The notes under the pieces: generated by a model
What the model was told of the DNA's origin: nothing
The model's input: only the letters and a program-made list of their open reading frames with translations
Databases searched by the model: none
Position numbers and translations under genes: made by a program
Shown here: positions 168 to 27,660 of the stretch, in pieces
Layout of the letters: each line of letters begins with the position of its first letter
Position numbering within the stretch: position 1 is the stretch's first letter
Source of the DNA: Verrucomicrobiota bacterium
GTDB lineage: Bacteria > Verrucomicrobiota > Verrucomicrobiia > Chthoniobacterales > Chthoniobacteraceae
DNA length: 47,628 nt
Direction: 5' to 3'
NCBI GenBank assembly: GCA_037130675.1
Contig: JBAXSN010000001.1
Span: 1-47,628 of the forward strand

Positions 168-226
168 CAGAGGCGCAGAGATTCATTCCTTCTCAATTCT
201 CTTTGCGCCTCCGCGCCTCTGCGCGG
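168..226. repeat. Compound palindrome, CGCAGAG-core family (left arm CAGAGGCGCAGAGA 168-181, right arm TCTCTTTGCGCCTCCGCGCCTCTGCGCGG 198-226)
   Basis: Read directly. The arms are reverse-complementary with 8-bp periodic GCGCCTCn units. The same core recurs at 20761-21021 and, degenerate, at 26780-26842. Confidence 0.8.
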
Positions 227-272
227 GTTTATTTTCCGGGTTAGGCTCGAGCGGAAATGGCCAAATGCCTTT

Positions 273-314
273 AAAAAAAAGCGGCACCCCCGGTGGTTTC
301 CCACCGAGGGTGCC
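273..314 (-). terminator. Rho-independent terminator downstream of pheT
   Basis: Minus strand reads GGCACCC-T-CGGTGG-GAAA-CCACCG-GGGGTGCC followed by GC and T8 (plus-strand A8 at 273-280). Confidence 0.75.
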
Positions 315-503
315 ATTTTACCCCGCAAGTGCCGTTAAGTAGCTTTACCCGTTCCCTCAAGGAAACGGCGGAAACCGTGAACAGCGCTTTGACTTCCAGT
401 GAAGGCATGTCATTGCCACCGCCCACCAAGCCTCCTCTGACGATCATATCGGTCCGGGAGCAGCTCCTGAATCTCGAACACCGCAGGGTAAATCTTTAAA
501 AGA

Positions 504-2858
504 TCATTCGCGGAAGTTGACGGCCAGTTCCGCCTTGAGTCGCTCTTTCAGCCGGTTATGGACTGCGGCAACTTCATCTGCCGTCAGTGTCCTCTCTTGA
601 GAGCGATAAGTCAATGCGTACGCCACCGATTTTTTGTCCGCGGGGATTCGCTGACCGGTTTCATCAGTGAAAACATCGAACAACTCGACCCCAACTAAAA
701 GAGGCTCGCTGGCGCTTCTCAGAACGGCCTCGATCCGGGCGTGCGGAACCTCCACAGGCGCCAGCATGGCGATGTCGCGCGTGACCGCCGGGAACTTGGG
801 CAATTCCGTGAAACTGACCCGGGCCGAGGCCGCTTCGAACAGGTCGAGATTCAGCTCCGCCACCAGCACGGGGGCGGTTGCATCGAGTTCGCGGGCCCGT
901 GCAGGCATGAGTTGCCCCGCCAGACCGACCACGACCTCCCCGCGCCGGATTTCCACCGCGAGCGCCAGGGCCGGATGCGAAACGGCTTCATAAGTGAGCC
1001 CATCCAGGTTCAGAGCCGCAAACGCGCCCTTGAGATCGAAGAAATCAGCCAGGCGCGGCTTGGCATCCCGCCAGGAGGAAGGATGCGTGGCGCCGGTCAA
1101 GACCAGAGCCAACGAAGTCCGCTCCTCGGCGGGCTGAGTGCTGCCGCCAAAGGCCCGGCCCACTTCAAAGAGCCGGAGATCGCGCACCCCGCTGCGGACA
1201 TTGCGAGCGACCGCATTCAAAAGCCCCGGAATGAGGCTCGGACGCAGGACGACCTGGTCTTCGTTGAGCGGATTGCGGACGCGAAGCGCCCCTTCCACCG
1301 GGAAGGCCAGGAGGTCGCGTTCGGAGATGAGCGTGAGGCTTCGGGCTTCATGGAAGCCTTGCGCCGCAAGAACCCGCCTCAAGCGCATGGCCTGATCGTG
1401 GCGCTTGTCCGCCGGCGTGCTCTCGACGAAACAACTCCGCCCACGGGCTGGCACCGCATCGATGCCAATGACTCGCGCGATTTCCTCAATCAGATCGATC
1501 TCGCGGGTAAGGTCCTGCCGGAATGATGGAACGCTCCATCCCGCTTCGCTCTTCTTAAGCCCGAATCCGGTGAGGATTTGATCCACTTGTCCCGCCTCCA
1601 CTTCCGCTCCGAGCACGGCCCGGCAGCGTTCGAGTCGGAACGACACAGTAGTTTGAAAGCCTGACGCCGATCCTGCCGCCGAGGCGATCGGCTCGGCCGT
1701 GCCTCCGGCCACTTCGAGGATCAGTTCGATGGCGCGAGCGGAAGCGGGCAGCACCCCTTCCGGGTCGATGCCGCGTTCATACCGGTAGCTCGCGTCGCTG
1801 GAGAGCCCGAGTTCCCGCGAGGTGCGGCGAATGCCTGCAGGCGTGAAGTAAGCGCTCTCAAGCAGCACGTCCACCGTGGCTTCGGTCACGCCGGAATCCT
1901 CGCCGCCCATCACCCCCGCGATGGCCAGGGCGCGCTGCTGATCGGCGATCAGCAAATGGCGCGGGGCCAAGGTGTAAGTCTTGCCGTCGAGCGCCAGGAA
2001 CGCCTCGCCTTCCGCGGCCTTGCGAACCCGGATGCCGCCGCTAAGTTTGGCCAGGTCGAAGGCATGGAGCGGCTGCCCCATTTCCAGCATGACGTAGTTG
2101 GTGACATCGACAATGTTGTTGATCGAACGAATGCCGATCGCTTCAAGCTTCCCCCGAAGCCAGGCGGGACTCGGCCCGACTTTCACGCCGCGAACCCGGC
2201 GCGCACTGTACAACGGACAATCCGCCTCGGCTTCCAGCGTGATATCGCTGGCGGGCTGGGCTTTCGCCCCCTTGGCAACCAAAACGCCGGTCGGCAAACG
2301 GAGCGTTTTACCCAAGAGCGTGGCGATCTCGCGCGCCATTCCGACATGGCTGAGAAGGTCGGGGCGGTTCGGGGTCACTTCCACGTCCAGGATCGTGTCC
2401 GACGGGAACAGGGAGCTAATTGCCGTGCCGATCGGGGCGGCTTCGGGGAGGATCAGCAAGCCATCCGCATCCTCGGCCAGCCCGAGTTCTTTGGCGCTGC
2501 ACATCATCCCTTCGCTCTCGATGCCACGGAGTTTGCCCACCTTGATTTTGAAATCGCCGGGCATAACGGCTCCGGGCAACGCCAGCGGGACTTTATCGCC
2601 GACCTTGTAGTTCTTGGCCCCGCAAACGATCTGGCGCGGCTGGGCCGAGCCGTCGTTGACTTTACAGACGCTCAGGCGATCCGCGTTCGGGTGCTGGTTG
2701 GACTCAAGAATCTGCGCGACCACCACCTTGTCGATGGAGACCCCGCGTTGTTCGATGCCTTCGACTTCGACGCCCGCTTTGGTCAGCAAATCCGAGAGCG
2801 CGGCGGCATCGGGCGGAAGTTCGACCAGTTCCTTGAGCCAGTTGAGTGAAACTTTCAT
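504..2858 (-). CDS. pheT: Phenylalanine--tRNA ligase beta subunit
   Basis: 784-aa ORF. It has the typical PheT N-terminus (MKVSLNWLKELV...) and tRNA-binding, B3/4, B5 and anticodon-binding-like regions, and lies directly downstream of pheS. Confidence 0.95.
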   Translation of the reverse strand: MKVSLNWLKELVELPPDAAALSDLLTKAGVEVEGIEQRGVSIDKVVVAQILESNQHPNADRLSVCKVNDGSAQPRQIVCGAKNYKVGDKVPLALPGAVMPGDFKIKVGKLRGIESEGMMCSAKELGLAEDADGLLILPEAAPIGTAISSLFPSDTILDVEVTPNRPDLLSHVGMAREIATLLGKTLRLPTGVLVAKGAKAQPASDITLEAEADCPLYSARRVRGVKVGPSPAWLRGKLEAIGIRSINNIVDVTNYVMLEMGQPLHAFDLAKLSGGIRVRKAAEGEAFLALDGKTYTLAPRHLLIADQQRALAIAGVMGGEDSGVTEATVDVLLESAYFTPAGIRRTSRELGLSSDASYRYERGIDPEGVLPASARAIELILEVAGGTAEPIASAAGSASGFQTTVSFRLERCRAVLGAEVEAGQVDQILTGFGLKKSEAGWSVPSFRQDLTREIDLIEEIARVIGIDAVPARGRSCFVESTPADKRHDQAMRLRRVLAAQGFHEARSLTLISERDLLAFPVEGALRVRNPLNEDQVVLRPSLIPGLLNAVARNVRSGVRDLRLFEVGRAFGGSTQPAEERTSLALVLTGATHPSSWRDAKPRLADFFDLKGAFAALNLDGLTYEAVSHPALALAVEIRRGEVVVGLAGQLMPARARELDATAPVLVAELNLDLFEAASARVSFTELPKFPAVTRDIAMLAPVEVPHARIEAVLRSASEPLLVGVELFDVFTDETGQRIPADKKSVAYALTYRSQERTLTADEVAAVHNRLKERLKAELAVNFRE

Positions 2859-2879
2859 AGATTAGATAAGAGAGTTCGC

Positions 2880-3902
2880 CTAAGCGCCCCGGTATTGCGC
2901 CAGGAAGCGCAGATCGTTGTCGGTGAAAAGGCGGATATCGGAGACGCCGCTGAGAATCATGGCCAACCGGTCCAGACCGAAGCCGAACGCAAAGCCCGTG
3001 TATTTCTCCGGGTCGTAAGCGAGATCGCCGCGTTTGCGGTTCATCTCCTGGAACACGGCGGGATCGACCATGCCGCATCCGGCCAGTTCCAGCCAGCGGT
3101 CCCCGCGTCCGAGCGCGGCGGCCTTGATGTCGATCTCGAAGCTGGGCTCCGTGAACGGGAAGAAATGAGGGCGCATCCGGACCTGGACATCGTCGCCGAG
3201 CAGCTCGCGGAAGAAGAATTCGATGGTCCCCTTGAGATCGCCCAAGGTAACCCCTTCATCCACATAGAGGCCTTCGATCTGGGTGAACTGCGCGAGATGC
3301 GTAGCATCGACTTCGTCCCGCCGGTAAACCCCACCCGGTGCGATGATGCGGACCGGCGGCGCGATCTGCTCCATGGTGCGGATCTGGACGGTGGACGTCT
3401 GCGTGCGCAGCAACCGGCCGTCGGGCATGTAAAACGTGTCCTGCTCGTTGCGGGCCGGGTGATCGGGCGGAGTGTTCAACGCGTCGAAGCAGTGCCACTC
3501 GGTTTCGATATCCGGGCCGTCGGCCAGGACGAATCCCATCTTGCGGAAAATCTGGATGGCGCGATCGAGCAACTGCGTGATCGGGTGGATGGCCCCGATG
3601 GGAAGCGGCGTGCCGGGCAGCGAGACATCGACCCCGGAGAGCGCCTTGGAATCGCGCTCGGCTTCGAGGGCCGACTTGCGGGCGTCGAGCGCCGAAGTGA
3701 CGGCGGTGCGCACTTCGTTGAGCAGCTTGCCGATGCGCGGCTTGTCTTCTTTGGAAAGGGATTTCATCCCCTCGCTCACGACGGAAATGCCGCTGGAGCG
3801 CCCGAGAAATTTGACGCGCACGGCTTCGAGGTCCGCCTCGCCGGCGGCTGCGGCGATGGCCGCGAGCGCTTCGGTTCGAATTTGTTCAAGTTGCTGATCC
3901 AT
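2880..3902 (-). CDS. pheS: Phenylalanine--tRNA ligase alpha subunit
   Basis: 340-aa ORF with class II aaRS motifs (FRxE-like YRRDEVDATH, GxGxGxxR-like GFAFGFGLDRLAM), located upstream of pheT. Confidence 0.95.
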   Translation of the reverse strand: MDQQLEQIRTEALAAIAAAAGEADLEAVRVKFLGRSSGISVVSEGMKSLSKEDKPRIGKLLNEVRTAVTSALDARKSALEAERDSKALSGVDVSLPGTPLPIGAIHPITQLLDRAIQIFRKMGFVLADGPDIETEWHCFDALNTPPDHPARNEQDTFYMPDGRLLRTQTSTVQIRTMEQIAPPVRIIAPGGVYRRDEVDATHLAQFTQIEGLYVDEGVTLGDLKGTIEFFFRELLGDDVQVRMRPHFFPFTEPSFEIDIKAAALGRGDRWLELAGCGMVDPAVFQEMNRKRGDLAYDPEKYTGFAFGFGLDRLAMILSGVSDIRLFTDNDLRFLAQYRGA

Positions 3903-3941
3903 GGAAAGGAAGGGTAAAATTGAGAAGATTGGATTGAAACG

Positions 3942-3977
3942 AAAAACGGCCAGCGACTGCCTAAACAGCCGCTGGCC
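3942..3977 (-). terminator. Hairpin plus U-tract between rplT and pheS (terminator or attenuator)
   Basis: Minus strand reads GGCCAGCGGCTG-TTTAGG-CAGTCGCTGGCC followed by GTTTTTCGTTTC. It sits in the 94-bp rplT-pheS spacer. Confidence 0.6.
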
Positions 3978-3996
3978 GGAAAATGATCTGAGCTAT

Positions 3997-4368
3997 TTAG
4001 GCTGCTTTCTTCTTCGCAAGGGCCTCAACGGCCTTCTTGACGATCGCCAGAAATGCTGCCTCGTCGCTCACAGCCATCTCGGCCAGCACCTTGCGGTCCA
4101 GCGTGATACCGGCGGCAACGGTGCCTTCGATAAATCGGCTGTAGGTAAGGCCGTTGGCACGGCAGGCTGCATTGATGCGCTGAACCCAGAGGTTCCGGAA
4201 GGTGCGCTTGCGGTTTTTCCGGTCGCGGTACGACCAGTATTCCGCTTTCATTACCGCGTTTTTCGCGTAGCGGAACAGTTTGGAACGACGGCCGCGGAAT
4301 CCCTTGGCTTTGTCGAGCATCCGCTTGCGGCGTTCGCGGCTAGCGGGAGCATTAGTTGCTCTTGGCAT
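3997..4368 (-). CDS. rplT: 50S ribosomal protein L20
   Basis: 123-aa ORF, basic, with characteristic L20 sequence ([21 protein letters not shown]...). Confidence 0.95.
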
Positions 4369-4479
4369 TGTTTGTCCTTTCTTTCAGCGTGCAGTTTTTA
4401 GTGTTGAAACGTCTTCCCGACCTCGCTCGCTGATGGAACCCCGTTAGGGATCAGGCAGGCAGACGCGCCCCTCGCGTTT

Positions 4480-4689
4480 TTACGCGAACGGCATGTTCTC
4501 TTTAATCCGAGCCATGTCGGTTTTGTCCACGAGGGCGGACTTGGCAAGCTGACGCTTGCGCTTCGCGCTCTTGCTTTGCAGCAAATGCCGCTTACAGGCT
4601 TGAGAGCGAAGGATCTTTCCGGTCCCCGTGATTTTAAACCGCTTGGCCACGGCCTTCTTCGTCTTTCGACGTGCGATTGACTTTGGCAT
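4480..4689 (-). CDS. rpmI: 50S ribosomal protein L35
   Basis: The C-terminal 69 aa of the 162-aa ORF (MPKSIARRKTKKAVAKRFKITGTGKILR...) is L35. The ATG at 4687-4689 was checked in the sequence. The upstream part of the ORF merely reads through a repeat element. Confidence 0.9.
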   Translation of the reverse strand: MPKSIARRKTKKAVAKRFKITGTGKILRSQACKRHLLQSKSAKRKRQLAKSALVDKTDMARIKENMPFA

Positions 4690-4810
4690 GGGGTGCGCAA
4701 AATAGGCGGGCCCCCGGAAATGGCAAGAGTTTTTTCGCGTTTTGCACGCACTTTTGCGTCTGGGAAGGGAAAATAACACAGCGAGGGGGGCGTCGGCAGC
4801 TCGGTGCCGA

Positions 4811-4895
4811 ATGGGAGGTATGGGAATTATGGGAGTTATGGGACTAATCCCATACTTCCCATGCTTCCCATGCTTCCCATACTTCCCATACTTCC
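4811..4895. repeat. Compound palindrome, ATGGGA-core family (4 units, CTAA loop, 5 units)
   Basis: Left arm: ATGGGAGGT ATGGGAATT ATGGGAGTT ATGGGA. Loop CTAA. Right arm: TCCCATACT TCCCATGCT TCCCATGCT TCCCATACT TCCCATACT TCC. Period 9 bp. It lies in the divergent rpmI/adhesin spacer. Confidence 0.9.
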
Positions 4896-4966
4896 GATCC
4901 GCTCCTGATAATAATCTTGCGGCGAGAGCGGAAAACGAAGAAAATCGAGTGTCCTGTTTTCCGCCC

Positions 4967-7936: not shown

Positions 7937-7987
7937 TTTACCTCTTGCGATCGGAGGAAATCAGGGAACATTCAAGCTAATCCCCCT

Positions 7988-11935: not shown

Positions 11936-12025
11936 GCGCCTGCGCACCAAGTTAAGAAATTCGCCACCCATCTTATCTTGACAGACCGCTGCGCGTGTCG
12001 CGTAGTGATCCCAATCACCAGCGCC

Positions 12026-12301
12026 ATGACTAAGGAAGAGTTTGCAACCATCATGAAGCAGTTCCGGGAACGGCGGAAGCTTACCCAGGAAGAAGCTGCC
12101 GCCGATCTTGGAGTTTCGGTGCGCACCCTGCAAAACTGGGAAATCGCCCGGAACATGCCGAACGGCTATGGCCTCCAGGCCATTCTGAGAACGCTGGAAG
12201 CTCCCGCCGAAAGCCGGAGGCCAAGGCTGCGCCCGGAAAAGAAAACCGAGGCCGCCGAGCCGGTTCATGTCACCGGCAGCCTCGAAACGCATTTGCTTTG
12301 A
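12026..12301 (+). CDS. XRE-family helix-turn-helix protein
   Basis: RKLTQEEAAADLGVSVRTLQNWE is a classic HTH_3/XRE motif. The start is uncertain: the ORF opens at 11978, and the ATG at 12026 gives MTKEEF. Confidence 0.65.
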   Translation: MTKEEFATIMKQFRERRKLTQEEAAADLGVSVRTLQNWEIARNMPNGYGLQAILRTLEAPAESRRPRLRPEKKTEAAEPVHVTGSLETHLL

Positions 12302-12315
12302 TAGGCCCAGCGGAA

Positions 12316-12431
12316 ATGGACTGACACGGACGAACACGGACTGGCACGGACCCCAGAAGAAGATGGGCCGCTCCTGGCGCCGCTTCGGATGTCCGTCCGT
12401 GTCCGTCCGTGTCCGTCCGTGTTCTGTCCAT
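12316..12431. repeat. Compound palindrome, ACGGAC-core family (10-bp period, ~37-nt spacer)
   Basis: Left arm: ATGGAC tgac ACGGAC gaac ACGGAC tggc ACGGAC. Right arm: GTCCGTCCGT x3 then GTTCTGTCCAT. The reverse complement of the right arm has the same hexamer phasing as the left arm. Confidence 0.9.
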
Positions 12432-12489
12432 ATCCTCTCGAAAAATTTCTGTTCAAGCGGCGCTTTCTGCCAAAGACTAGCCCCATATT

Positions 12490-13281
12490 ATGCAGAACCG
12501 GATCGATCAGACTTTTGAGCGGCTGCGCTCGCGCGGACAATCGGGATTTATCGCTTACATTGGAGCGGGAGACCCCAACTTGGCGGCAACCGAAGCGCTG
12601 GCGCTCGCGCTGGAATCCGCCGGGGTGGACATTCTGGAACTCGGGGTGCCCTTTTCCGATCCCCTGGCGGACGGCATCGTCAACCAGCAGGCGGCCTTGC
12701 GGGGACTCGCTTCGGGAACCACGCTCCATGGGGTGCTCGACTGCGTCAAGCGCATCCGGGAGAAATCGCAAATGGCGATCGTTCTCTACACTTACATGAA
12801 CCCAGTGTATCGGTTTGGGTTTGCGGAGTTCCTGCGCGAAGCCGAAGCGGCGGGCGTGGACGGCGTTCTTTTGCTCGATTTGCCGCCCGACGAAGATTGC
12901 GGCGAGTTCGAAGTGGCCAGCAACATCCGGCGCATCCGGTTGATCGCCCCCACCACGCCCCCGGCGCGCGTCGCGGAACTGACCAAGCGCGCAGAGGGCT
13001 TTGTTTATTACGTCTCGCGTGAAGGCGTCACCGGAGAGCAAACCACGATTTCCGACACGCTCGCCGCAGGCGTGGCAAGCATCCGGGAAACCACCGATCT
13101 GCCGATCGCTGTCGGCTTCGGAATTTCCAATCCCGAGCAAGCCCGCGAAGTGGCTCGCCAGGCGGATGCCGTGGTGGTCGGCAGCGCCATCGTCAAGCGG
13201 ATCGCGGAATTCGGCCACTCCCCGGATCTGGTCCAGCGGGTGGCGGATTTCGTGCGCCCGCTGGCTGCCGCGACGAAGTAA
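12490..13281 (+). CDS. trpA: Tryptophan synthase alpha chain
   Basis: 263 aa. Carries ELGVPFSDPLADG and the C-terminal GFGIS...VVGSA motifs typical of TrpA. Confidence 0.93.
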   Translation: MQNRIDQTFERLRSRGQSGFIAYIGAGDPNLAATEALALALESAGVDILELGVPFSDPLADGIVNQQAALRGLASGTTLHGVLDCVKRIREKSQMAIVLYTYMNPVYRFGFAEFLREAEAAGVDGVLLLDLPPDEDCGEFEVASNIRRIRLIAPTTPPARVAELTKRAEGFVYYVSREGVTGEQTTISDTLAAGVASIRETTDLPIAVGFGISNPEQAREVARQADAVVVGSAIVKRIAEFGHSPDLVQRVADFVRPLAAATK

Positions 13282-13306
13282 GCCGCCGATTAAGAGATTT
13301 CCGGAC

Positions 13307-13354
13307 TTCGCGCCTTCGCGTCTTCGCGTGACACAAAAAGAACTCACGCGAAGG
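13307..13354. repeat. Compound palindrome, CTTCGCG-core (3 units on the left, 1 on the right)
   Basis: CTTCGCGc CTTCGCGt CTTCGCGTGA, a 12-nt loop, then TCACGCGAAG. The innermost stem is a perfect 10 bp. It lies 26 nt after the trpA stop. Confidence 0.85.
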
Positions 13355-13686
13355 CGGTAGAGTAGAGAGTGGCAGAGGCACTGTTTGGCAGCGCGGTTCT
13401 GCCACTCCCCCTCATCGAACCGGACGTGCAGGTTTCCCGCATCCGGCTCTCCTGTGAACATTTCGTCATGGGCGAAGAAGCCCCGGTTGCTGGAGATACC
13501 GATAGTAAGTCATTTCCTTGGGCCGGTGGCATTTGCGCTGGCTGCGCCGGTTCAGGTGCGTGATCATCCGCGACCGGGCATAATGCCCACGGACTGTCAA
13601 AAAATGTCGCCTGCCCCCCTTCAGGAGATCGAGTTCGCATCTGCGTCGTGCTTGATTCCCAAGCCGGCGCTCTTTAGTTTGAGCCC

Positions 13687-14025
13687 ATGACTATCTTCGA
13701 GAAAATCGCCCGTCGCGAGATCCCCGCCAGCATTGTCTATGAAGAGGAGGATTTTTTCGCGTTCCAGGATGTCGCGCCAGTGGCACCCGTCCATGTGTTA
13801 ATCGTTCCCAAACGGGTGATCCCCCGGATCGGAGATGCGGAGCCCGAAGACGCGGCGCTGCTTGGCCGGATGCTGGTGGCCTCGAAGGAAATCGCTCGGA
13901 AACTGGGGGTTGGCGAATCCGGCTACCGCTTGGTGATCAATCACGGCCCGGATGCCGGGGAAAGCGTTCCGCATCTGCATATCCATCTGCTGGGGAAGCG
14001 CAAGCTCGCCTGGCCTCCGGGATAG
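13687..14025 (+). CDS. HIT-family (histidine triad) nucleotide hydrolase
   Basis: 112 aa with the HLHIHLLG histidine triad and the N-terminal IF.KI..E.P motif. Confidence 0.88.
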   Translation: MTIFEKIARREIPASIVYEEEDFFAFQDVAPVAPVHVLIVPKRVIPRIGDAEPEDAALLGRMLVASKEIARKLGVGESGYRLVINHGPDAGESVPHLHIHLLGKRKLAWPPG

Positions 14026-14064
14026 GGGATAGGACGGGAGAGTTCCACGGGGACATCGCCGCGG

Positions 14065-15528: not shown

Positions 15529-15533
15529 TTTGG

Positions 15534-16676: not shown

Positions 16677-16681
16677 GGTCG

Positions 16682-17140
16682 TTAAATCACGTAATCCAAC
16701 CCAGCCGCTTCGTCCTTCAGTCGGCTCGCGCGCTCGCAGAGGTCGGCCAAGGTCACGTTTTCCAGCACCTTCAGCATGGCTTCCTGCACTTCTTTCATGA
16801 CGCTTCGAATCGCCAGTTGAATCTCGTCCGGGCGAACCCCCTTGCGGCCCGATTTATCCCCTTCGGTCGTCACCGGCGCCAAGGCCCCCTCCACATACCG
16901 GATCAATTCAGCCAGGCTGATTTCTTCCGGTGGACGCGCAAGCTGGTAACCCCCTGCGATTCCTCGACGGCTTTCGACAAATCCGCCGGACTTCACGTCG
17001 TTGAGGATCTGTTCCAGGAAGCGTTTGGGAATGTTTTGCTGCTCGGAGATCGCCTGAATACGGACAATTCCTTTGCCATAATGCTCCGCGAGCACGATCA
17101 GCGCGCAAAGAGCGTATTCCCCACGAAGCGAGAGTTTCAT
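16682..17140 (-). CDS. Rrf2-family transcriptional regulator (CymR/IscR-like)
   Basis: 152 aa. N-terminal winged HTH MKLSLRGEYALCALIVLA... is typical of Rrf2. It is the first gene of the minus-strand trans-sulfuration operon. Confidence 0.85.
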   Translation of the reverse strand: MKLSLRGEYALCALIVLAEHYGKGIVRIQAISEQQNIPKRFLEQILNDVKSGGFVESRRGIAGGYQLARPPEEISLAELIRYVEGALAPVTTEGDKSGRKGVRPDEIQLAIRSVMKEVQEAMLKVLENVTLADLCERASRLKDEAAGLDYVI

Positions 17141-17190
17141 GGATGCATCATCGTAATCTACATCGAGTAAGTCAAGAAAGAGATTTCGGA

Positions 17191-17260
17191 ATGGGAGATA
17201 TGGGAAGCATGGGAGGAATGGGATTCATATTTCCCATAATTCCCATAATTCCCATTTCCC
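17191..17260. repeat. Compound palindrome, ATGGGA-core family (second copy)
   Basis: Left arm: ATGGGAGAT ATGGGAAGC ATGGGAGGA ATGGGATTC. Centre ATAT. Right arm: TTCCCATAA TTCCCATAA TTCCCAT TTCCC. It lies in the divergent Rrf2/cysK spacer. Confidence 0.9.
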
Positions 17261-17302
17261 CTCTGAAAACATCTCCCTCAAAAAAATTCTACAGAAACTC
17301 GA

Positions 17303-17330
17303 TTGACAAGCTGTGGTATCAGCGTATTCT
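17303..17330 (+). promoter_or_regulatory. Candidate sigma-70-type promoter for the cysK operon
   Basis: TTGACA (17303-17308), 16-nt spacer, TATTCT (17325-17330), about 50 nt upstream of the cysK ATG. This is pattern matching only. Confidence 0.3.
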
Positions 17331-17379
17331 CGCCCCATCGACCGACTGAAACCGCCAAAAATTCAAAAAACCAAAAACC

Positions 17380-18354
17380 ATGCCACACATTTACAACGAC
17401 ATCAGTGAGACCATCGGGAACACGCCGCTGGTTCGCCTCAACCGCACCGCGAAGAAGCACGGAGCCGTCGCCGACGTGCTGCTCAAGCTCGAGTTTTTCA
17501 ACCCGCTTTCGAGCGTGAAGGATCGGATCGGCGTGGCGATGATCGACGACGCCGTGCGCAACGGGAAGATCAACGCCGACACGGTGCTGATCGAGCCGAC
17601 CAGCGGCAACACCGGGATTGCGCTCGCCTTCATCGCTGCAGCTCGCGGGTTGAAGCTCATCCTCACGATGCCCGACACGATGTCCACCGAACGGCGCAAG
17701 CTGTTGAAGATCCTCGGCGCCAAGCTGGTGCTGACTGAAGGTTCCAAGGGCATGAAAGGGGCGATCGCGAAAGCCGAGGAACTCAACGCCAGGATTCCCA
17801 ACAGCGTCATTCTCCAGCAGTTCTCTAACCCCGCGAACCCTGAAATCCACCGCCGCACCACCGCCGAGGAGATCTGGCGGGACACCGAGGGGAAGGTTGA
17901 TTTCGTCGTATCGGGCGTCGGCACAGGCGGCACCATCACGGGCGTTGCCGAAGTGATCAAAGCTCGCAAGCCGGGTTTCAAGGCGATTGCGGTGGAACCG
18001 ACCCGCTCGCCGGTTCTCTCCGGTGGCCAGCCCGCCCCGCACAAGATCCAGGGTATCGGCGCGGGATTCGTCCCTGCCGTTCTCAACACGCAAATCATCG
18101 ACGAAGTGATCCAGGTTAAAGAGGAAGACTCCGGCCCGATTTCCAAGGAAGTCAATCAGCTCGACGGCATCCCTGTGGGTATTTCCAGCGGGGCGGCAAT
18201 CTGGGCGGGCTTGGAACTGGCCAAACGCCCCGAGAATGCCGGCAAACAAATTGTTGTGATTGTGCCGTCATCGGCTGAGCGATATCTCTCGTCCTGGCTC
18301 TTCGCAGACATCGACCCGGAGAGCGACAACATCGACACTCTCATTCCCGCCTAA
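17380..18354 (+). CDS. cysK: Cysteine synthase A (O-acetylserine sulfhydrylase)
   Basis: 324 aa. SVKDRIG PLP-lysine motif and GTGGTITG loop. Confidence 0.93.
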
Positions 18355-18381
18355 TCCGCGGGGATTCACCTAAACGAACTT

Positions 18382-20064: not shown

Positions 20065-20071
20065 TCTCCCC

Positions 20072-20728: not shown

Positions 20729-20760
20729 CCGGCCTCAAATCGATGAGAGAACCAGACTCC

Positions 20761-21021
20761 CGCAGAGACGCAGAGGCGCAGAGAGTCATTCTTTTGCCCT
20801 CGTTCCAGAGCTCCAGCTTGGGAACGAGCGAGGCAAACCAGCACGGCATCGACGCCCCATCCCAAGGCGGCAGGGGACTGCCGCACTCCAAGGCGCTGGC
20901 GCGCTCCGTCCCATGCGCGAAGCGCCTTGGAGTGCGGTGGCCCTCCACCGCCTTCAGGGGAGACACCGCACCGCCTTCAGCCCATCCATTCCCACACCTC
21001 TGCGCCTCCGCGCCTCTGCGG
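20761..21021. repeat. MITE-like 261-bp element bounded by CGCAGAG-core inverted arms, with nested internal hairpins
   Basis: Left arm CGCAGAGA CGCAGAGG CGCAGAGA (20761-20784). Right arm CCTCTGCG CCTCCGCG CCTCTGCG (20997-21020). Inside are a perfect 17-bp inverted repeat (20881-20897 / 20921-20937), a CTCGTTCC...GGAACGAG hairpin (20799-20828) and a 12-bp direct repeat CACCGCCTTCAG (20946-20957, 20969-20980). Confidence 0.85.
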
Positions 21022-21047
21022 TGAAACGCAAAACAGACCAAATTTCA

Positions 21048-21950
21048 ATGAGCAGTTATCACATTGACCACCTCCAATATCTTGAAACCGAAGCCATCCA
21101 CATCATGCGGGAGGTGGCGGCGGAATTCGAACGCCCGGCCCTCCTGTTTTCCGGAGGCAAAGACTCCATCTGCCTGTTGCGCCTGGCCGAGAAAGCTTTC
21201 AGGCCCTCGGATATCCCGATGCCGTTCCTCAACATCGACACCGGCCACCATTTCCCTGAACTCAACGAATTCCGCGACCGGCGCGCAAAGGAACTCGGCG
21301 CCAAGTTGATCATCCGCAAGGTCGAGGACGCCATCGCCCAAGGGATCGCCATTCCCTCTCCGGGCGAGGTCAGCCGGAACCGGTTGCAGATCCCGACGTT
21401 GCTCGCGGCCATCGAGGAGTTCCGATTCGACTGCTGCATCGGCGGCGCCCGGCGCGACGAGGAAAAGGCGCGGGCAAAGGAGCGGTTCTTCAGCTTCCGC
21501 GACGGATTCGGCCAGTGGGACCCAAAGAATCAGCGCCCGGAAATCTGGAACCTCTACAACACCAAAGTAAATCCGGGTGAGAACATGCGTGCGTTCCCGC
21601 TCAGCAACTGGACCGAGATGGACGTTTGGGAATACATCCGCAAAGAAAATCTGGAAGTCCCGACAATCTATTTCAGTCATGATCGCGAATGTGTTCGCCG
21701 CCATGGCCAATGGCTCCCGGTGAACGATCTCGTTCCGCCAAAGGCCAACGAGCAGACGAAGAAGCTCGTCGTCCGCGTCCGCACCATTGGCGACATCATC
21801 AGCACCGGTTGTGTCGAATCCCCGGCAACGACCGTGGCGGATATCCTCGCCGAAATCGCCGCCGCCCGGGTCACCGAACGCGGCTCGCGAGCCGACGACA
21901 AATCCTCCGAAGCGGCGATGGAGGACCGCAAAAAGGCTGGGTACTTCTAA
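21048..21950 (+). CDS. cysD: Sulfate adenylyltransferase subunit 2
   Basis: Start set at MSSYHIDHLQYLETEAIHIMRE (ATG 21048 checked). PAPS-reductase-fold SGGKDS motif. The upstream part of the ORF runs through the repeat element. Confidence 0.92.
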   Translation: MSSYHIDHLQYLETEAIHIMREVAAEFERPALLFSGGKDSICLLRLAEKAFRPSDIPMPFLNIDTGHHFPELNEFRDRRAKELGAKLIIRKVEDAIAQGIAIPSPGEVSRNRLQIPTLLAAIEEFRFDCCIGGARRDEEKARAKERFFSFRDGFGQWDPKNQRPEIWNLYNTKVNPGENMRAFPLSNWTEMDVWEYIRKENLEVPTIYFSHDRECVRRHGQWLPVNDLVPPKANEQTKKLVVRVRTIGDIISTGCVESPATTVADILAEIAAARVTERGSRADDKSSEAAMEDRKKAGYF

Positions 21951-21969
21951 CGAGCGCGCCCCTGTTTTA

Positions 21970-22083
21970 GACAGGATTAACAGGATTGACATGATTTACA
22001 GGATTAGAAGCGATGACTACTAACCCGCCATCTCAGACCTTGGGCGAAATCCTGAGAATCCAATAAATCCTGTTAATCCTGTC
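21970..22083. repeat. Compound palindrome, ACAGGATT-core family (9-bp period, ~40-nt spacer)
   Basis: Left arm: GACAGGATT AACAGGATT GACATGATT TACAGGATT. Right arm: AAATCCTGAG AATCCAATA AATCCTGTT AATCCTGTC. The outer 18 bp are perfectly complementary (21970-21987 / 22066-22083). Confidence 0.9.
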
Positions 22084-22123
22084 AAAAAATTCAAACCGAA
22101 TATTTCTCAGAAACATTTTTCCA

Positions 22124-23443
22124 ATGACCGTTTCAGCACACCATCCCATCGATCTCCTTCGTTTCAACACCTGCGGCAGTGTCGATGACGGGAAATCCAC
22201 CCTTATCGGCCGCCTGCTCTATGACTCGAAGTCATTGATGGAGGACCAGATCGAAGCCCTCGAGCGCTCCGCCGACATCACCGGCGGCGGGCAGATCAAC
22301 CTGGCCAATCTCACCGACGGACTGCGGGCCGAGCGGGAGCAGGGGATCACCATCGACGTCGCTTACCGCTACTTCGCCACGCCACGCCGCAAGTTCATCA
22401 TCGCGGACACCCCTGGCCACGTTCAATACACCCGCAACATGGTCACCGGCGCTTCCAACGCCAACCTGTCGGTCGTGCTCGTCGATGCGCGCCTGGGCGT
22501 CATCGAACAAAGCCGCCGCCACACCTGCATCGCCTCGCTGCTGCGCATCCCGCATCTCGTGGTGGCGGTCAATAAGATGGATCTGGTGGGTTGGAGCGAA
22601 GAGCGGTTCATGGAGATCCGCGACGAATTCGAGGAATTCCTGCCGCGGCTCGACATGAAGGATGTGCAGTTCATCCCGATCAGCGCGATTCACGGCGACA
22701 ACGTGGTCGATCTGTCGAAGAATATGCCGTGGTACCCGGGGCCCACGCTGCTTGGTCACCTCGAATCGATCCACATCGGCAGCGATTGGAATCTCAACGG
22801 CTTCCGGTTGCCCGTCCAGTGGGTCAATCGCCCGAGCAATCCGACCAATCCCGAGCTGCACGACTTCCGCGGCTTCAGCGGCCAGATCGCCGGCGGCATT
22901 GTCCGGACCGGACAAAAGGTCATGGTCCTGCCGAGCGGGCTGGTGACCACGGTGAAAGAGATCCTGACGTATGACGGTCCGGTGGAAGAGGCGTTCTGCC
23001 CGCAATCGGTTACGCTGGTGCTGGCGCACGATATCGACATCAGCCGCGGCGACATCATCGTCGGCCTCGATAATCTCCCGGGAGCCGACACCGAACTGCG
23101 TGCCAAGATTTGCTGGATGCATTCGCGCCCGCTTCAGCCAGGCCGGAAATATCTCCTCAAGCACACCACGCAGACGGTCCAGGCGGTGGTCACGAGCATC
23201 GAGGACCGGCTGAACATCACCAACCTCGAACCCGTGCCCGCGCCCGGCGAGTTGACGCTCAACGACATCGGCGAAATCCGTTTGCGGACTTCCAAGCCGC
23301 TGCACTTCGATGGCTACAGCACCAACCGCCTCACCGGTTCCTTCATCCTGATCGAACAAGGCACCAACGCCACGGTTGCCGCCGGCATGCTCTTCCCGCC
23401 GACCAACGTCGTGAAACCCGAATACAATGATTTCGCGATCTAA
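22124..23443 (+). CDS. cysN: Sulfate adenylyltransferase subunit 1 (GTPase), no APS-kinase fusion
   Basis: 439 aa. G1 GSVDDGKST, G3 DTPGH, G4 NKMD. Confidence 0.92.
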   Translation: MTVSAHHPIDLLRFNTCGSVDDGKSTLIGRLLYDSKSLMEDQIEALERSADITGGGQINLANLTDGLRAEREQGITIDVAYRYFATPRRKFIIADTPGHVQYTRNMVTGASNANLSVVLVDARLGVIEQSRRHTCIASLLRIPHLVVAVNKMDLVGWSEERFMEIRDEFEEFLPRLDMKDVQFIPISAIHGDNVVDLSKNMPWYPGPTLLGHLESIHIGSDWNLNGFRLPVQWVNRPSNPTNPELHDFRGFSGQIAGGIVRTGQKVMVLPSGLVTTVKEILTYDGPVEEAFCPQSVTLVLAHDIDISRGDIIVGLDNLPGADTELRAKICWMHSRPLQPGRKYLLKHTTQTVQAVVTSIEDRLNITNLEPVPAPGELTLNDIGEIRLRTSKPLHFDGYSTNRLTGSFILIEQGTNATVAAGMLFPPTNVVKPEYNDFAI

Positions 23444-23660
23444 AGCCCAACAGGAGGTCCCCCGGGCTCTGCCGGAGTGGCTCCCAAAGTTTGAATTATC
23501 CTAGATCCGGCAGAAGAGCCTCGCGAAATCCAATTGCTTTCTAGGATTATAGTTCGGTCAATTTTCGAAGGCAGAGTGCCGGATTTTGACCGCCCGTGTC
23601 CGGACAAAATGGAATTTGCCGATGGCAACAAACCCGCCGTTTTGCTAGCGTCCTCGTCAA

Positions 23661-24548
23661 GTGAACCGAGATCTTCTACCCATCATCGCCATTACTGAGC
23701 CCTCGGCCGATTACGAACTGTTGGACAGCGGCGATGGTGAAAAACTGGAGCGCTACGGCAAGGTGCTGTTGCGCAGGCCGGACCCGCAAGCCTTGTGGCG
23801 CAAATCCGATGCTGCGCTCTGGAAGGAGGCTCACGGCTGCTTTGTGCGCGAGGGGCGCGATGGCCGCTGGAATTTCACCAAAGCGGTTCCCGAAAAATGG
23901 ACGATCCGCCTGGCTAATCTGACCTTCAATATTCGTCCGACCGCCTTCAAGCATACCGGCATTTTTCCGGAACAGGCCCCGAATTGGGACTGGATGCGGG
24001 AAGCAATCCGCACGGCGGGCCGGGAAATCTCGGTGTTGAACCTTTTTGGCTACACCGGGGGAGCGTCGCTGGTCTGTGCCCAAGCCGGCGCCAAAGTCTG
24101 CCACGTCGATGCCTCCAAAGCCTCCGTCGGTTGGGCGAGGGACAATGCCGAACTCTCCGGGCTGGCCGCAAAACCGATCCGATGGATTGTCGATGACGCG
24201 AAGGCGTTCGTGAAAAGGGAATTGCGGCGAGGAAATCGCTACGACGCAGTCATTATGGACCCGCCAGCGTTTGGCCGGGGGCCGGAAGGCGATGTGTGGC
24301 AGATCGAAGACGATTTCGTTCCCCTAATGGATTCCTGCCGGGAACTGCTGAGCGATACGCCACTCTTCTTTGCCGTCAACGGCTATGCCTCCGGTTATTC
24401 CCAGTTGGCCTACCGTTATAACCTGGCGGCTCTTGGCAAAAGATTCGGCGGAGAACTCGAATCCGGCGAGCTTACGATCCGGGAATCCAAAGGCGGCAGA
24501 CTGCTGCCTTGCGGGATTTTTGCGAGGTGGTTTGCCGGAAAGAAATGA
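23661..24548 (+). CDS. Class I SAM-dependent methyltransferase (RlmI/RlmK-like, no PUA domain)
   Basis: 295 aa, GTG start. NLFGYTGG (motif I) and IMDPPAFGRG (motif IV). Confidence 0.8.
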   Translation: MNRDLLPIIAITEPSADYELLDSGDGEKLERYGKVLLRRPDPQALWRKSDAALWKEAHGCFVREGRDGRWNFTKAVPEKWTIRLANLTFNIRPTAFKHTGIFPEQAPNWDWMREAIRTAGREISVLNLFGYTGGASLVCAQAGAKVCHVDASKASVGWARDNAELSGLAAKPIRWIVDDAKAFVKRELRRGNRYDAVIMDPPAFGRGPEGDVWQIEDDFVPLMDSCRELLSDTPLFFAVNGYASGYSQLAYRYNLAALGKRFGGELESGELTIRESKGGRLLPCGIFARWFAGKK

Positions 24549-24670
24549 CTCCGAAAGCAGGAAGCCGCTGACGCGGTGGGATGCTCCATAGTAGAAGCGG
24601 CTTCCAGCCGTTTTCCGCCGGGAGCAGCCCTTCTTCGTCATGCGTGGGGATGGGCCGCATCACAAACTCC

Positions 24671-24946
24671 TTACCACCCTCGTCCGTAAGGTCCGTAAGG
24701 CCAGGGGCGTTCCCAGTTCTTGTTCATGATGTCGTAGGAGCGATCCACCGGCCTGGTGAACACGATCGGGCTGAGGACATAGGTGCGTTCACCCACGGGA
24801 GCGACCCGGCTTGTGTGATAGACGTTGTATTCGCGAACAGGCGGCGCGGTTTCGCAGCCCGCGAGTAGCATAATGGCCAAGCTGGCCAGCGAAGCGATGG
24901 ATGCGGTCCGAAGCTGGTGGTTCGAATTTGCGATAATGGTTCTCAT
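24671..24946 (-). CDS. Small putative lipoprotein
   Basis: Internal start MRTIIAN... (ATG 24944-24946 checked) gives a 91-aa product with the lipobox LLAGC. The longer 178-aa ORF has no support. Confidence 0.5.
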   Translation of the reverse strand: MRTIIANSNHQLRTASIASLASLAIMLLAGCETAPPVREYNVYHTSRVAPVGERTYVLSPIVFTRPVDRSYDIMNKNWERPWPYGPYGRGW

Positions 24947-25111
24947 GGTTTCCTCAACATGGTTTCGGTCAAAGGTTGCCACCCGATTGCATGGGGTGTG
25001 CGACCGGGCAACGCGGAAGCCGAACTTCGCGTCTCCGTGAGTCGTTCCCGTTAAATTGGCGGGAAATTTCCCACCGCCGGGCCGGGCACCGTCGATTTCC
25101 TCACGAATCAA

Positions 25112-26767
25112 ATGCACCCCGACCTTGTGATGACCGCCCAAGCCTTCGCCCGGGTATTCGCCCGTTCTGGAGACTTGCGCCGGGCTGCCGCTCCTGAATT
25201 TCGACACGGCGGGCCGGTCTTGTGGGCCGGCTTCGCGGTTCTCTTGCTTGGGGCCCTCGCCCTGGAGATTTTGTGGGTGGTGCCTGCGCGCTACTATTTA
25301 TTGATCCAGACCGCGACCCGGCAGGAGGCGAGGCGTGCCGCCCAGCGGGGAGTGGATCGGGCGGTGGCAGAGCTTAATTTGGCCGGGGGCGATTTTTCCG
25401 CTTACGCATGGGATGCCGCCGGGTGGACCCAGCGAGAGAGTCCATCGAATGCCCCGGCTTCGGGCGCATCTTTGCGCCGGGTGCCAGACCCTGAGAATGC
25501 AACGGGCGATGCACCCGCAAGTGGCGTGAAGCCGCTATTGCTCGCGGGTTGCGAAATCACGCCCATTATCGGCCTGTCCGCTCAAGCGAACATTGAGCTT
25601 TCCGCCGTTTATCCCGATCCCGAACCCGACCACAACGGCAATGTTATTTTTCGAATCCGATCCGAGGGGGTGTCCGAAATTGCCGAGCCGCGCTGGGCTC
25701 GGGCGAATCGCCTGGAGTTAGCGCTTCGCCGGGTCATTGCTTTGAACTTGCGCCAAACCTTGGCGACGAATTTCCATGGTTTTGAAAACTGGACCATGCC
25801 ACTGGCGCAGGTTGCCGAAGCGTTGGTGAAACCTTCCAAGCTCAGCGCTTTAGCCTTGGTGGCTCAGGAGGAGGTGGTGCTAGGGAGCAGCCCAGGATGG
25901 AACATGGACAGTTACGATTCCCGGGACTCGGGGAAATCGGCTCCGAATCCCGCCATGCCCGGCGTCATCGGCTGCGGCACCTATCCCGGCGAAGGAAGCC
26001 CTGGAGTTCAGAGCCACTGCGCCATTGCAACGAATGGGCAGCAGGTGAAGGCAAATGGCGCGATCATCAAGGGAACCATCAGCACGCATGAAGGCGCGGT
26101 CACTGATTCTCAAAACGTCACCGGCTCGATCCGCAGCGATTTTAGCCGCGAACTGCCGCCGCCACTCCGGCCTTCGGTGAAGCAGTTTCAGATAAATCCG
26201 GACTATCGGAATGGCGCGCCCTTTCCCTCCGGTGGGAGCGCCCTCGATCCGTTTTATTATCGGATCGCGGGCGAGCTTGGGAGCTTCAGCGTTGCCCCGC
26301 CTTCTTCAGGTGCAAAACGGGGTTATGTGACCATTTTTGTGGATGGCGCGCTGAAACTGGGCGGAAGCGGCAAGGCATATTTGATCGTACCGCCGGGAGT
26401 GATCTGCAAGCTTTACGTTCGGGACGACATCGACTTCGGCGAGGGATTGGTCAACACCACGGAACCCAGCTCGCGGATGCCGGCTCAACTCATCGTGAAC
26501 GGAGAAAGAACGCTGGATCGGAATGGCTCAGTAATCCCGAAGAAATTGGTGGCGACGGGTTCGGCTGCCATCGCGGCGGTTCTTAACGCTCCCGATTACG
26601 AAGTTTGCGTCCCGGGTTTGGCGGAATGGTATGGGTCCATCATTGCCCGAAAATACACCGTCATCGGACGTGGCAACGGCGGGTTTCATTACGACGAAGC
26701 GTTGGATGCTTTTGGGAAAATCGAAGAGTTCCGGATCACCCAATATAAAGAAATCGAGCCGAAGTAG
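25112..26767 (+). CDS. Hypothetical N-terminally membrane-anchored protein (PilX/TadG-like flavour)
   Basis: 551 aa. One N-terminal hydrophobic helix (GPVLWAGFAVLLLGALALEILWVV), then a Gly/Pro-rich extracytoplasmic region ending GGFHYDEAL. The family assignment is from memory only and the start is uncertain. Confidence 0.55.
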   Translation: MHPDLVMTAQAFARVFARSGDLRRAAAPEFRHGGPVLWAGFAVLLLGALALEILWVVPARYYLLIQTATRQEARRAAQRGVDRAVAELNLAGGDFSAYAWDAAGWTQRESPSNAPASGASLRRVPDPENATGDAPASGVKPLLLAGCEITPIIGLSAQANIELSAVYPDPEPDHNGNVIFRIRSEGVSEIAEPRWARANRLELALRRVIALNLRQTLATNFHGFENWTMPLAQVAEALVKPSKLSALALVAQEEVVLGSSPGWNMDSYDSRDSGKSAPNPAMPGVIGCGTYPGEGSPGVQSHCAIATNGQQVKANGAIIKGTISTHEGAVTDSQNVTGSIRSDFSRELPPPLRPSVKQFQINPDYRNGAPFPSGGSALDPFYYRIAGELGSFSVAPPSSGAKRGYVTIFVDGALKLGGSGKAYLIVPPGVICKLYVRDDIDFGEGLVNTTEPSSRMPAQLIVNGERTLDRNGSVIPKKLVATGSAAIAAVLNAPDYEVCVPGLAEWYGSIIARKYTVIGRGNGGFHYDEALDAFGKIEEFRITQYKEIEPK

Positions 26768-26779
26768 CGTTCGATCATT

Positions 26780-26842
26780 CTCCCGCAGAGGCGCTGAGGG
26801 TTTCAGGCTCTATAAATCTCTGTGCCTCAGCGCCTGCGGGAG
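26780..26842. repeat. Long hairpin between convergent genes (degenerate CGCAGAGGCGC family)
   Basis: CTCCCGCAGAGGCGCTGAGG (26780-26799) pairs with CCTCAGCGCCTGCGGGAG (26825-26842), giving 18 bp with a 2-nt bulge. No U-tract on either side. Confidence 0.8.
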
Positions 26843-26856
26843 GCTCTTCTGCTCGA

Positions 26857-27354
26857 TCAATTCCACAATCTCTGCAAGTCGGGGTCGCGCTTGGCGTTCT
26901 TCTTGAACGAGGCGTTGATCTCGATCGCCCTTCGAATGCACTGCCGGGCGGTGCCGATGTCGCCCATCTGCGCCTCGTAGCAGGCGAGATTGTAATGGAG
27001 GATGCCCGTGGCCCGGATCCACTCCGGGGCATCCCGGATTACCTGCACGGCTTCCGTCGGCCTTTCCTGCTGCTTTAAGGCGAAGGCCCGCTGCACCATA
27101 AATTCATTTTCTTCGGGATAAAGGCCGTTCCCCTCGGTCGATAACTCCTCAGCCTGTTTCCAGCGCTTCAGATGAAGCAGGATTCGGATCCGTGCCCGCA
27201 GCACATCGGCGCTCCATTGATCATCCGGCGGAATGGCCTGCAACTCGCTCCAAGCCTCGTCGGGCAACCCCAGGAAAAGATAGCCGTCAGCGGCAACCAA
27301 GGCGCGCTCCACATCCGGCGATCCTTTTCCGGGTTTAGTGGTGAGGTACAACAT
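26857..27354 (-). CDS. TPR-repeat protein
   Basis: 165 aa, helical repeat pattern (W..A...L......P......YNLACYEAQMGDIGTARQCIRRAIEI). A GGAG sits 7 nt upstream of the ATG. Confidence 0.7.
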   Translation of the reverse strand: MLYLTTKPGKGSPDVERALVAADGYLFLGLPDEAWSELQAIPPDDQWSADVLRARIRILLHLKRWKQAEELSTEGNGLYPEENEFMVQRAFALKQQERPTEAVQVIRDAPEWIRATGILHYNLACYEAQMGDIGTARQCIRRAIEINASFKKNAKRDPDLQRLWN

Positions 27355-27633
27355 TAACCTTCTCCAAGAGCGGTCCGTCCCGGCAATTGCGGGGCTTAAA
27401 CTCGGTGAGCAGGTGATCCCAGTGCCATCGGGCGTTCCGCCCTTTGCTGAGTTTCACCGCAATGCATGCCAGGTGAAGGAAACATCGGTGGGCTTTTGTC
27501 ATGGTTCATCCCTCCATTTGAGAGGGCCTCTTACAATGATTACGTGCCGGACGAACCCATGGACGGCATTCTTCAGCAATCTGAGAGTTCGCCTGATGGC
27601 CGTTGGGAGGCTTCAGGAAATGAAAAGCATAAC

Positions 27634-27660
27634 TCCCATTCCTCCCATCAGTCCCATTCC
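27634..27660. repeat. Solo arm of the ATGGGA/TCCCAT family (3 units)
   Basis: TCCCATTCC TCCCATCAG TCCCATTCC, period 9, located 14 nt downstream of the nuoC stop. I saw no partner arm. Confidence 0.75.

Follow-up and report, generated by a model that had tools for sequence, protein, structure and literature searches.

Short tandemly repeated repetitive (STRR) sequences of cyanobacteria are built from 7-mer units without a variable part, and one STRR hairpin lies upstream of hoxW. Other STRRs, e.g., that between hupS and hupL, also consist of tandem 7-bp repeats forming intergenic hairpin loops, for which a contribution to transcript stability has been suggested and whose function is unexplained (PMC2670836). 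These hairpins are the closest known system to the elements described here, which occur in a 47,628-nt stretch of DNA (hereafter the window; contig JBAXSN010000001.1, positions 1 to 47,628, of GenBank assembly GCA_037130675.1) from an uncultivated member of the Verrucomicrobiota. Between the genes of this stretch, arrays of short tandem units recur, each facing its own reverse complement across a spacer and built on one of several different core sequences.

Other described repeats offer partial parallels. Repetitive extragenic palindromic (REP) units are 20–40-bp palindromes tagged with GTAG or CGTC, and their partner is a gene for a REP-associated tyrosine transposase (RAYT) (PMC3733652, PMC3116915). 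In the Foldback and Galileo elements of Drosophila, arm length differs from copy to copy, and also between the arms of a single copy, via gain and loss of tandem repeats (PMC3573991). Bacterial MITEs (miniature inverted-repeat transposable elements; Correia, ERIC, Nezha, and others) are short, non-coding and intergenic, form long stem-loops and occur as dispersed families (PMC3184786); the same 2011 review of small bacterial repeats uses the term "tandem" twice, neither time for arms made of tandem units.

Inverted tandem arrays in the window

The initial annotation had listed ten sites of one design within the first 28 kb. Nine of these indeed pair an array whose unit measures 8, 9 or 10 nt with the reverse-complement array 4–214 nt further on; they were read directly and then recovered independently by Tandem Repeats Finder and an inverted-repeat finder. 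The tenth site, 24669–24700, was rejected as it represents a coding 9-nt tandem duplication (...PYGPYGRGW*) at the C-terminus of a minus-strand open reading frame (ORF; MRTIIANS...LAGC...), probably that of a small lipoprotein. The observation is genuine, statistically solid and widespread, and with about even confidence we assign the sites to at least five dispersed families, each made up of small foldback repeats in intergenic DNA. The elements of the window, with the z score of their RNA fold against shuffled sequence where available, are as follows.

163–226: CGCAGAG-family foldback, ~2 + 3 units, 25-nt spacer, z = −4.4
4811–4901: ATGGGA+3 foldback, 4 units, 4-nt loop, 5 units, z = −6.7
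12312–12435: A(C/T)GGAC+4 foldback, period 10, ~4 + 4 units, 38-nt spacer, z = −7.8
13306–13354: CTTCGCG+1 array, 3 units against a single inverted CGCGAAG, z = −1.5 (not significant)
17191–17260: ATGGGA+3 foldback, 4 + 3 units, z = −5.6
20760–21021: CGCAGAG+1 foldback in the cysH–cysD spacer, 3 + 3 units, 214-nt spacer
20795–20984: nested insert within the loop of the 20760–21021 element
21965–22088: ACAGGATT+1 foldback in the cysD–cysN spacer, 4 + 4 units, ~42-nt spacer, z = −6.9
26777–26845: degenerate CGCAGAG-family foldback between convergent DUF7305 (+) and TPR (−) genes, z = −4.7
27594–27660: decayed ATGGGA-family element just downstream of nuoC

An origin by chance or from low-complexity sequence is ruled out by two controls. 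A strict detector, for which one hexamer has to occur at least twice at 7–12-nt spacing and its reverse complement likewise within 300 nt, found 4 inverted-array loci in the window compared with 0.055 on average and never more than 1 in 200 dinucleotide-shuffled versions, and 0 loci in a 50 kb E. coli control. The RNA folds of the elements likewise beat those of shuffled sequences (z of −4.4 to −7.8), except for the lopsided site at 13306–13354, which is a weak or decayed member and adjoins a group II intron fragment. Both DNA strands of the elements fold about equally well. All nine elements lie in the non-coding 11.7% of the first 28.2 kb (P ~4e-9), and they fill 28% of that non-coding DNA.

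Differences between units fell within at most three adjacent columns in 34 of 41 cases vs. 27.9 ± 1.8 under the null model (P ~0.001), so that "core plus variable bases", the grammar originally attributed to these arrays, is a fair description. In the folds, 85–93% of core positions and 53–83% of variable positions are paired. Hairpins from which one unit had been deleted still reached −30 to −61 kcal/mol, and the earlier likening of the elements to hairpins of REPs and bacterial interspersed mosaic elements (BIMEs), able to pair in several registers, is apt. The argument that a period of about one helical turn places the cores on one face of the duplex, in contrast, is weak: periods range from 7 to 10 bp between families and, therefore, successive cores rotate differently around the duplex. 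Iterons or a replication origin were rejected on the basis of these periods, the housekeeping surroundings, and the lack of a rep gene and of any anomaly in composition or skew.

Runs of at least four ATGGGA+3 units (4811–4846, 17191–17226 and many metagenome loci) fit the G-quadruplex pattern G3N6G3N6G3N6G3, with the opposite arm being C-rich. The pattern is specific to ATGGGA and is not found with other cores. As an account of the elements in general, neither a G-quadruplex (ATGGGAN3 x4 fits G3N6) nor CsrA-type GGA motifs can cover the CGCAGAG, CTTCGCG and CCAATG cores.

Dispersed families of common descent

For comparison with the window we used metagenome contigs, among them L128 and L131, two contigs of its nearest relative that derive from one sample (97% CysD and TrpA identity to the window, with genes 86–88% identical at the nucleotide level). 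Copies with the same core share more than the grammar to which the initial annotation had limited their likeness; loops, ends, and even a degenerate unit recur. The CGCAGAG copies at 163–226 and 20760–21021 carry the same right arm (CGCCTCCGCGCCTCTGCG), down to a degenerate unit in its middle, and their loops start alike with TCATTC; this TCATTC... loop is shared by the copies at 26777–26845 and in L128 as well. The former copy has a degenerate left arm (CGCACCAGAGG CGCAGAG), followed by the loop (ATTCATTCC...) and the right arm (GCGCCTCC GCGCCTCT GCGC), and its loop and right arm align with both the L128 copy and the copy at 20760–21021. The loop of the degenerate element at 26777–26845 also aligns with that of the L128 copy. 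Copies of the ACAGGATT family have common ends (GACAGGAT...ATCCTGTC; TTTTAGACAGG...CCTGTCAAAAA for the element at 21965–22088), and further copies are present in L131:12-46 and L101. ATGGGA elements of unrelated metagenome contigs repeat the unit order GNT-AGC-GGN, and their arm order is ATGGGA-first in 16 cases and TCCCAT-first in 2. What had been taken for a solo arm of this family, three TCCCAT+3 units at 27634–27660, has a decayed, degenerate left partner at ~27594–27615. Because loops, ends and unit order are shared at unrelated loci, the copies of one family come from a common element; each core defines a dispersed family and the sites are not ten independent constructions.

The same cores recur beyond the window's lineage. 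CACGGAT+3, i.e., one core with one period, occurs in the different genera represented by L005 and L130, the CGCAAAG core is found in L029, L129 and L133 (again different genera), and CGCAGAG-like arrays are found in L065, L132 and L056. Several different cores exist, as initially stated, but they are not simply unrelated, as many are xxGGAy-like, others form a CRCARAG group, and cores recur across genera. Contigs chosen for an ATGGGA array alone very often bear foldbacks built on different cores as well, with L066 reaching four or five of these per 8 kb, and compound and nested foldbacks are present in L029, L066 and L119. A phylum was assigned to L018 alone among the metagenome contigs; this contig (46% G+C) derives from a gut Prevotella, its HutU being 98% identical to proteins named Prevotella or Prevotellaceae. 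The foldback architecture is therefore not confined to one phylum, and the claim of a shared architecture across different cores extends to other genomes.

Further arrays lie in two contigs. L029:1731-1869 is a solo array of 17 8-mer units (TCGTCGAG and variants) in which only 4 of the 8 columns vary and close to which no inverted partner lies. In L006:11-173, the inverted arrays TCCGAAA x2 ... GAATTCG x4.7 flank and enter an apparent membrane-protein coding sequence (...WPFILLLLDYWPLNRIRNSEFGIRNF...), where the array may be tolerated in frame.

One explanation for such recurrence of cores is that they are binding sites and that each family is recognized by a different sequence-specific protein. 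This could be a host DNA-binding protein or a transposase that binds at multiple subterminal sites (cf. Foldback/Galileo, Ac and Tn7), and the arrays would exist because several protomers must bind each arm. The strict conservation of 6–7-nt cores beside freely varying bases, the identity of cores and periods in different genera and the fixed arm order of ATGGGA elements are all in line with this idea, and tandem repeats in the terminal inverted repeats of eukaryotic transposons have been proposed as secondary transposase-binding sites (PMC3573991). Even so, we consider binding by cognate proteins unlikely. At least five cores within 28 kb would demand many such proteins, whereas none is encoded in the window and no ORF-bearing "master" or parent copy was found among 144 loci; no target-site duplication or other direct repeat was seen at the element ends in the inspected flanks of the CGCAGAG copies and other elements; the periods do not hold sites on one helix face; and the fixed arm order is equally accounted for by common descent.

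Change between relatives

Orthologous copies reveal how the arrays change. The ACAGGATT element is 92% identical in L128, where the left arm, but not the right, has one additional unit. For the A(C/T)GGAC element, L131 has an ortholog with the same loop, relative to which the window has one more left unit and ~1.5 more right units. Its perfect arm is the right one in the window, consisting of three perfect TGTCCGTCCG units, and the left one in L131; the lineages thus differ in the arm that is homogenized, each having seen a recent expansion of one unit variant there. The cysH–cysD element with the CGCAGAG core has a loop of 26 nt in L128, whereas the loop in the window is longer by ~190 nt owing to the nested insert (BLAST breakpoints 20794 and 20985). 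This insert holds a ~90-nt long-hairpin repeat (20864–20954) of a different kind. The repeat (GGCGCACTCCAAGGCGCT...AGCGCCTTGGAGTGCGG TGGCCCTCCACCGCC; ~90–100 nt) represents a second, non-tandem class of dispersed palindromic repeat, with copies in other Verrucomicrobiota genera (L007:13660-13760, L130:17990-18085, L056:240-320).

Gene order breaks at the foldbacks upstream of cysK (window 17140–17380 vs. L128:181-549), where the window and L128 both carry an ATGGGA element, although of different subfamilies and with non-homologous left flanks. It also breaks on both sides of the HTH–trpA pair (window 11978–13700 vs. L131:4187-5690), the sole gene order conserved around trpA. L132 (93% TrpA identity) does not have the A(C/T)GGAC element located between these two genes, and its homology to the window begins directly past the end of the element. 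The cysH–cysD–cysN spacers of the more distant relatives L129 and L130 are compact, ranging from a 4-nt overlap to 47 nt, and element-free compared with 319 and 173 nt in the window, which suggests that the cys-spacer elements were gained in the window's lineage. Four contigs of the window's own strain (L001–L004) are identical to the window, and two of these (L003 and L004) begin within the right arm of the A(C/T)GGAC element. Strain-level indels in these contigs were rejected, the sole apparent "indels" being a fold-back assembly artefact at a contig end.

Population-level variation was observed in Prevotella. Among ten strains with identical HutU, one lacks exactly two left-arm units of the element between hutU and hutH. 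Upstream of the FTCD/hutU operon (locus 2370–2900 in L135–L144) lies a hypervariable mosaic, in which the combinations of foldback blocks differ by strain. In two Prevotella strains, the foldback blocks have as neighbors an insertion sequence (IS; DDE_Tnp_1) along with the reverse transcriptase of a group II intron.

Overall, the elements are inherited in place, their arms change mainly by whole units and one arm at a time, further small hairpin repeats insert into their loops, and they coincide with gene-order breaks. Alternatively, each site could have originated locally: a mutational process acting across the genome, such as slippage, or fold-back repair synthesis copying an array into its inverse, would have amplified a simple hairpin or short motif where it lay, with no movement between loci. 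Whole-unit gain and loss fits a local origin, the perfectly homogeneous arms point to recent local expansion, and solo arrays exist. However, loops, ends and degenerate units are common to copies at unrelated loci, identical cores recur in several genera, and one Prevotella site holds different elements in different strains, all of which renders a purely local origin very unlikely.

Gene context and a potential role as RNA

The initial placement of the elements in intergenic DNA holds for all nine, but the accompanying statement that they lie at gene 3′ ends is not general. Two separate divergent genes, one separates convergent genes, and four lie between co-directional genes, two of them in the cys operon. 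The divergent settings are those of two ATGGGA elements: 4811–4901 separates rpmI (−) from a Calx-beta gene (+), with promoter-like sites flanking or overlapping the element, and 17191–17260 lies between Rrf2 (−) and cysK (+) amid their promoter-like sites. The CGCAGAG-family element at 163–226 is located past the terminator of a probable 6S RNA gene. An association with neighboring HTH or antitoxin genes was considered and found not to be consistent.

The elements could act as RNA, with hairpins protecting upstream mRNA, setting 3′ ends or processing sites, or coupling the genes of an operon, as previously proposed for REP elements and cyanobacterial STRR hairpins. Their very stable RNA folds agree with such a function, as do the two copies in the cysH–cysD–cysN operon and the one between the HTH gene and trpA, and the hupS–hupL STRR hairpins have been suggested to stabilize transcripts (PMC2670836). 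Yet the two ATGGGA copies between divergent genes are probably not transcribed, as the promoter-like sites around them fire away from the element, and an RNA role therefore cannot explain all copies. Moreover, the same operon is found in relatives without elements, fold energies and G-U pairs show no consistent strand bias relative to gene direction, and a search against Rfam returned no family match, only sub-threshold scores to generic miRNA-precursor hairpins. The hairpins also have no T-tail, although canonical terminators exist elsewhere in the genome; intrinsic terminators were accordingly rejected as an identity for the elements, with only a sub-hairpin at 210–227 being flagged, whereas genuine terminators of the window are found at 315–282 and 3978–3947. 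Taken together, an RNA role as the general explanation is quite unlikely.

A model for the turnover of arrays

The reading that we prefer, with the scales close to balanced, is one of STRR-like or foldback-like repeats that spread from one intergenic site to another and whose turnover is by slippage. New copies would enter intergenic DNA by transposition or recombination in some form, and their arrays would subsequently be reshaped by replication slippage. If the foldback is kept, be it for the element's own propagation or for use by the host, while its register keeps shifting, a grammar of a conserved core plus 1–4 variable bases could result. Columns that are identical in every unit would pair in any register and be conserved as core, whereas diverged columns would fall into small internal loops at low cost and drift freely; the variable columns would be contiguous because a mismatch beside an existing internal loop costs less than one that opens another. 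The model is consistent with the difference in pairing between core and variable positions, with the survival of hairpins after unit loss and with the clustering of unit differences. A common generating or recognizing mechanism, to which the initial annotation had pointed, is possible, but slippage combined with selection for a register-tolerant foldback offers a simpler account, in which the shared grammar would need no dedicated "writer".

Several points weigh against spread and slippage as outlined above. There is no transposase or candidate mobilizing gene in the window or between distant inverted arm pairs, no target-site duplication was visible in the inspected flanks of the CGCAGAG copies, and no clean pair of a filled and an empty site was found among the Verrucomicrobiota elements compared. 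Partnerless solo arrays are common (L005, L029, L130, L132), and therefore the array rather than the foldback could be the basic unit of spread. The conservation of cores across genera equally fits recognition by a sequence-specific protein, the main rival explanation, and the register-tolerance account is one that we infer rather than demonstrate. A broader alternative is a hitherto undescribed bacterial foldback class that spans Verrucomicrobiota, Bacteroidota and perhaps the cyanobacterial STRRs and is propagated or "written" by dedicated machinery recognizing or synthesizing tandem core units. This appears improbable to us; if true, it would explain both the single grammar of unrelated cores and the persistence of the same cores across genera.

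Relation to known repeat classes

Like STRRs, the elements are intergenic arrays of short units that can form a hairpin with an inverted array, they are also found within operons, and several unrelated units are present per genome. Unlike the 7-bp units described from heterocystous cyanobacteria, units in the window are 8, 9 or 10 nt long (7 in some contigs) and include 1–4 free positions, the hosts belong to other phyla (Verrucomicrobiota, and Prevotella), and there is no sequence similarity. A further difference is the family dispersal with conserved loops and nested insertions documented here.

With REPs, BIMEs and REP doublets forming hairpins (REPINs) the elements have in common that they are small, dense, extragenic palindromic repeats of several families that form mosaic clusters and mark sites of rearrangement, with no target-site duplication seen in the flanks inspected here. 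Membership in this group was nevertheless rejected. The arms are tandem arrays of 8–10-nt units that are not self-complementary, in place of 20–40-bp palindromes, and a palindrome is formed only by both arrays together; no consistent terminal GTAG or CGTC tag is present at any of the nine elements. Among the genes of the 47.6-kb window, no RAYT (Y1 HUH transposase) was seen.

The internally repetitive inverted arms, which vary independently in length, and the location at rearrangement breakpoints resemble Foldback/Galileo and the foldback elements of plants. Foldback/Galileo elements, however, are eukaryotic, their arms extend over hundreds of bp with larger units, and they have a known transposase and known target-site duplications, whereas the present elements measure 50–260 nt and neither a coding partner nor a duplication was seen for them. 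Bacterial MITEs are similar as families of short, non-coding, intergenic stem-loops. MITEs, however, have unique terminal inverted repeats that match a parent IS, as well as flanking target-site duplications, neither of which was found here among the 144 loci and the flanks inspected. The elements had no match in collections of annotated plasmids and phages. A literature search, limited in scope, did not turn up any account of comparable elements from Verrucomicrobiota or Prevotella, which is absence of evidence only.

Genes and other features of the window

The window represents ordinary chromosomal DNA. CysI of the nearest genome representatives, titled Verrucomicrobiae, is 62–63% identical, and relatives of CysD and TrpA are labeled Chthoniobacteraceae or Verrucomicrobiota. 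Housekeeping genes include pheST, rplT–rpmI, genes for two Calx-beta proteins, the HTH gene, trpA, a HIT gene, genes for two Cys/Met PLP enzymes, Rrf2, cysK–cysI–cysH–cysD–cysN, a methyltransferase gene, nuoBC, cysS and others; there is no transposase, integrase or replication gene among the genes of the 47.6 kb.

Two non-coding features lie close to foldbacks. On the minus strand, 316–492 is a full-length match to 6S RNA (RF00013; 44.3 bits vs. a gathering score of 46.4, E = 5e-6) that adjoins pheT downstream and is followed by the strong terminator hairpin at 315–282 (−); it is probably the ssrS gene. In the 400-nt spacer between trpA and the HIT gene, 13357–13451 (−) matches an orphan group II intron domain V/VI (RF00029, 52 bits) and has no intron ORF in its vicinity. 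Near this fragment, contigs of the window's strain come to an end (L001 at 13584; L002 with the fold-back artefact at ~13393–13407), which suggests that it is a multi-copy remnant.

Implications

In the first 28.2 kb of the window, foldbacks take up more than a quarter of the non-coding sequence. They are found within operons as well as between divergent promoters, and metagenome assemblies break at them. Many contig ends and spurious small ORFs in metagenome-assembled genomes of Verrucomicrobiota are explained by this class. If it is general, the 35-year-old STRR puzzle would gain a comparative footing in three phyla. Population data are abundant for Prevotella. The origin and movement of the arrays would then become testable, along with the use that bacteria may make of them, for which transcript stability, supercoil relief and recombination hotspots are candidates.

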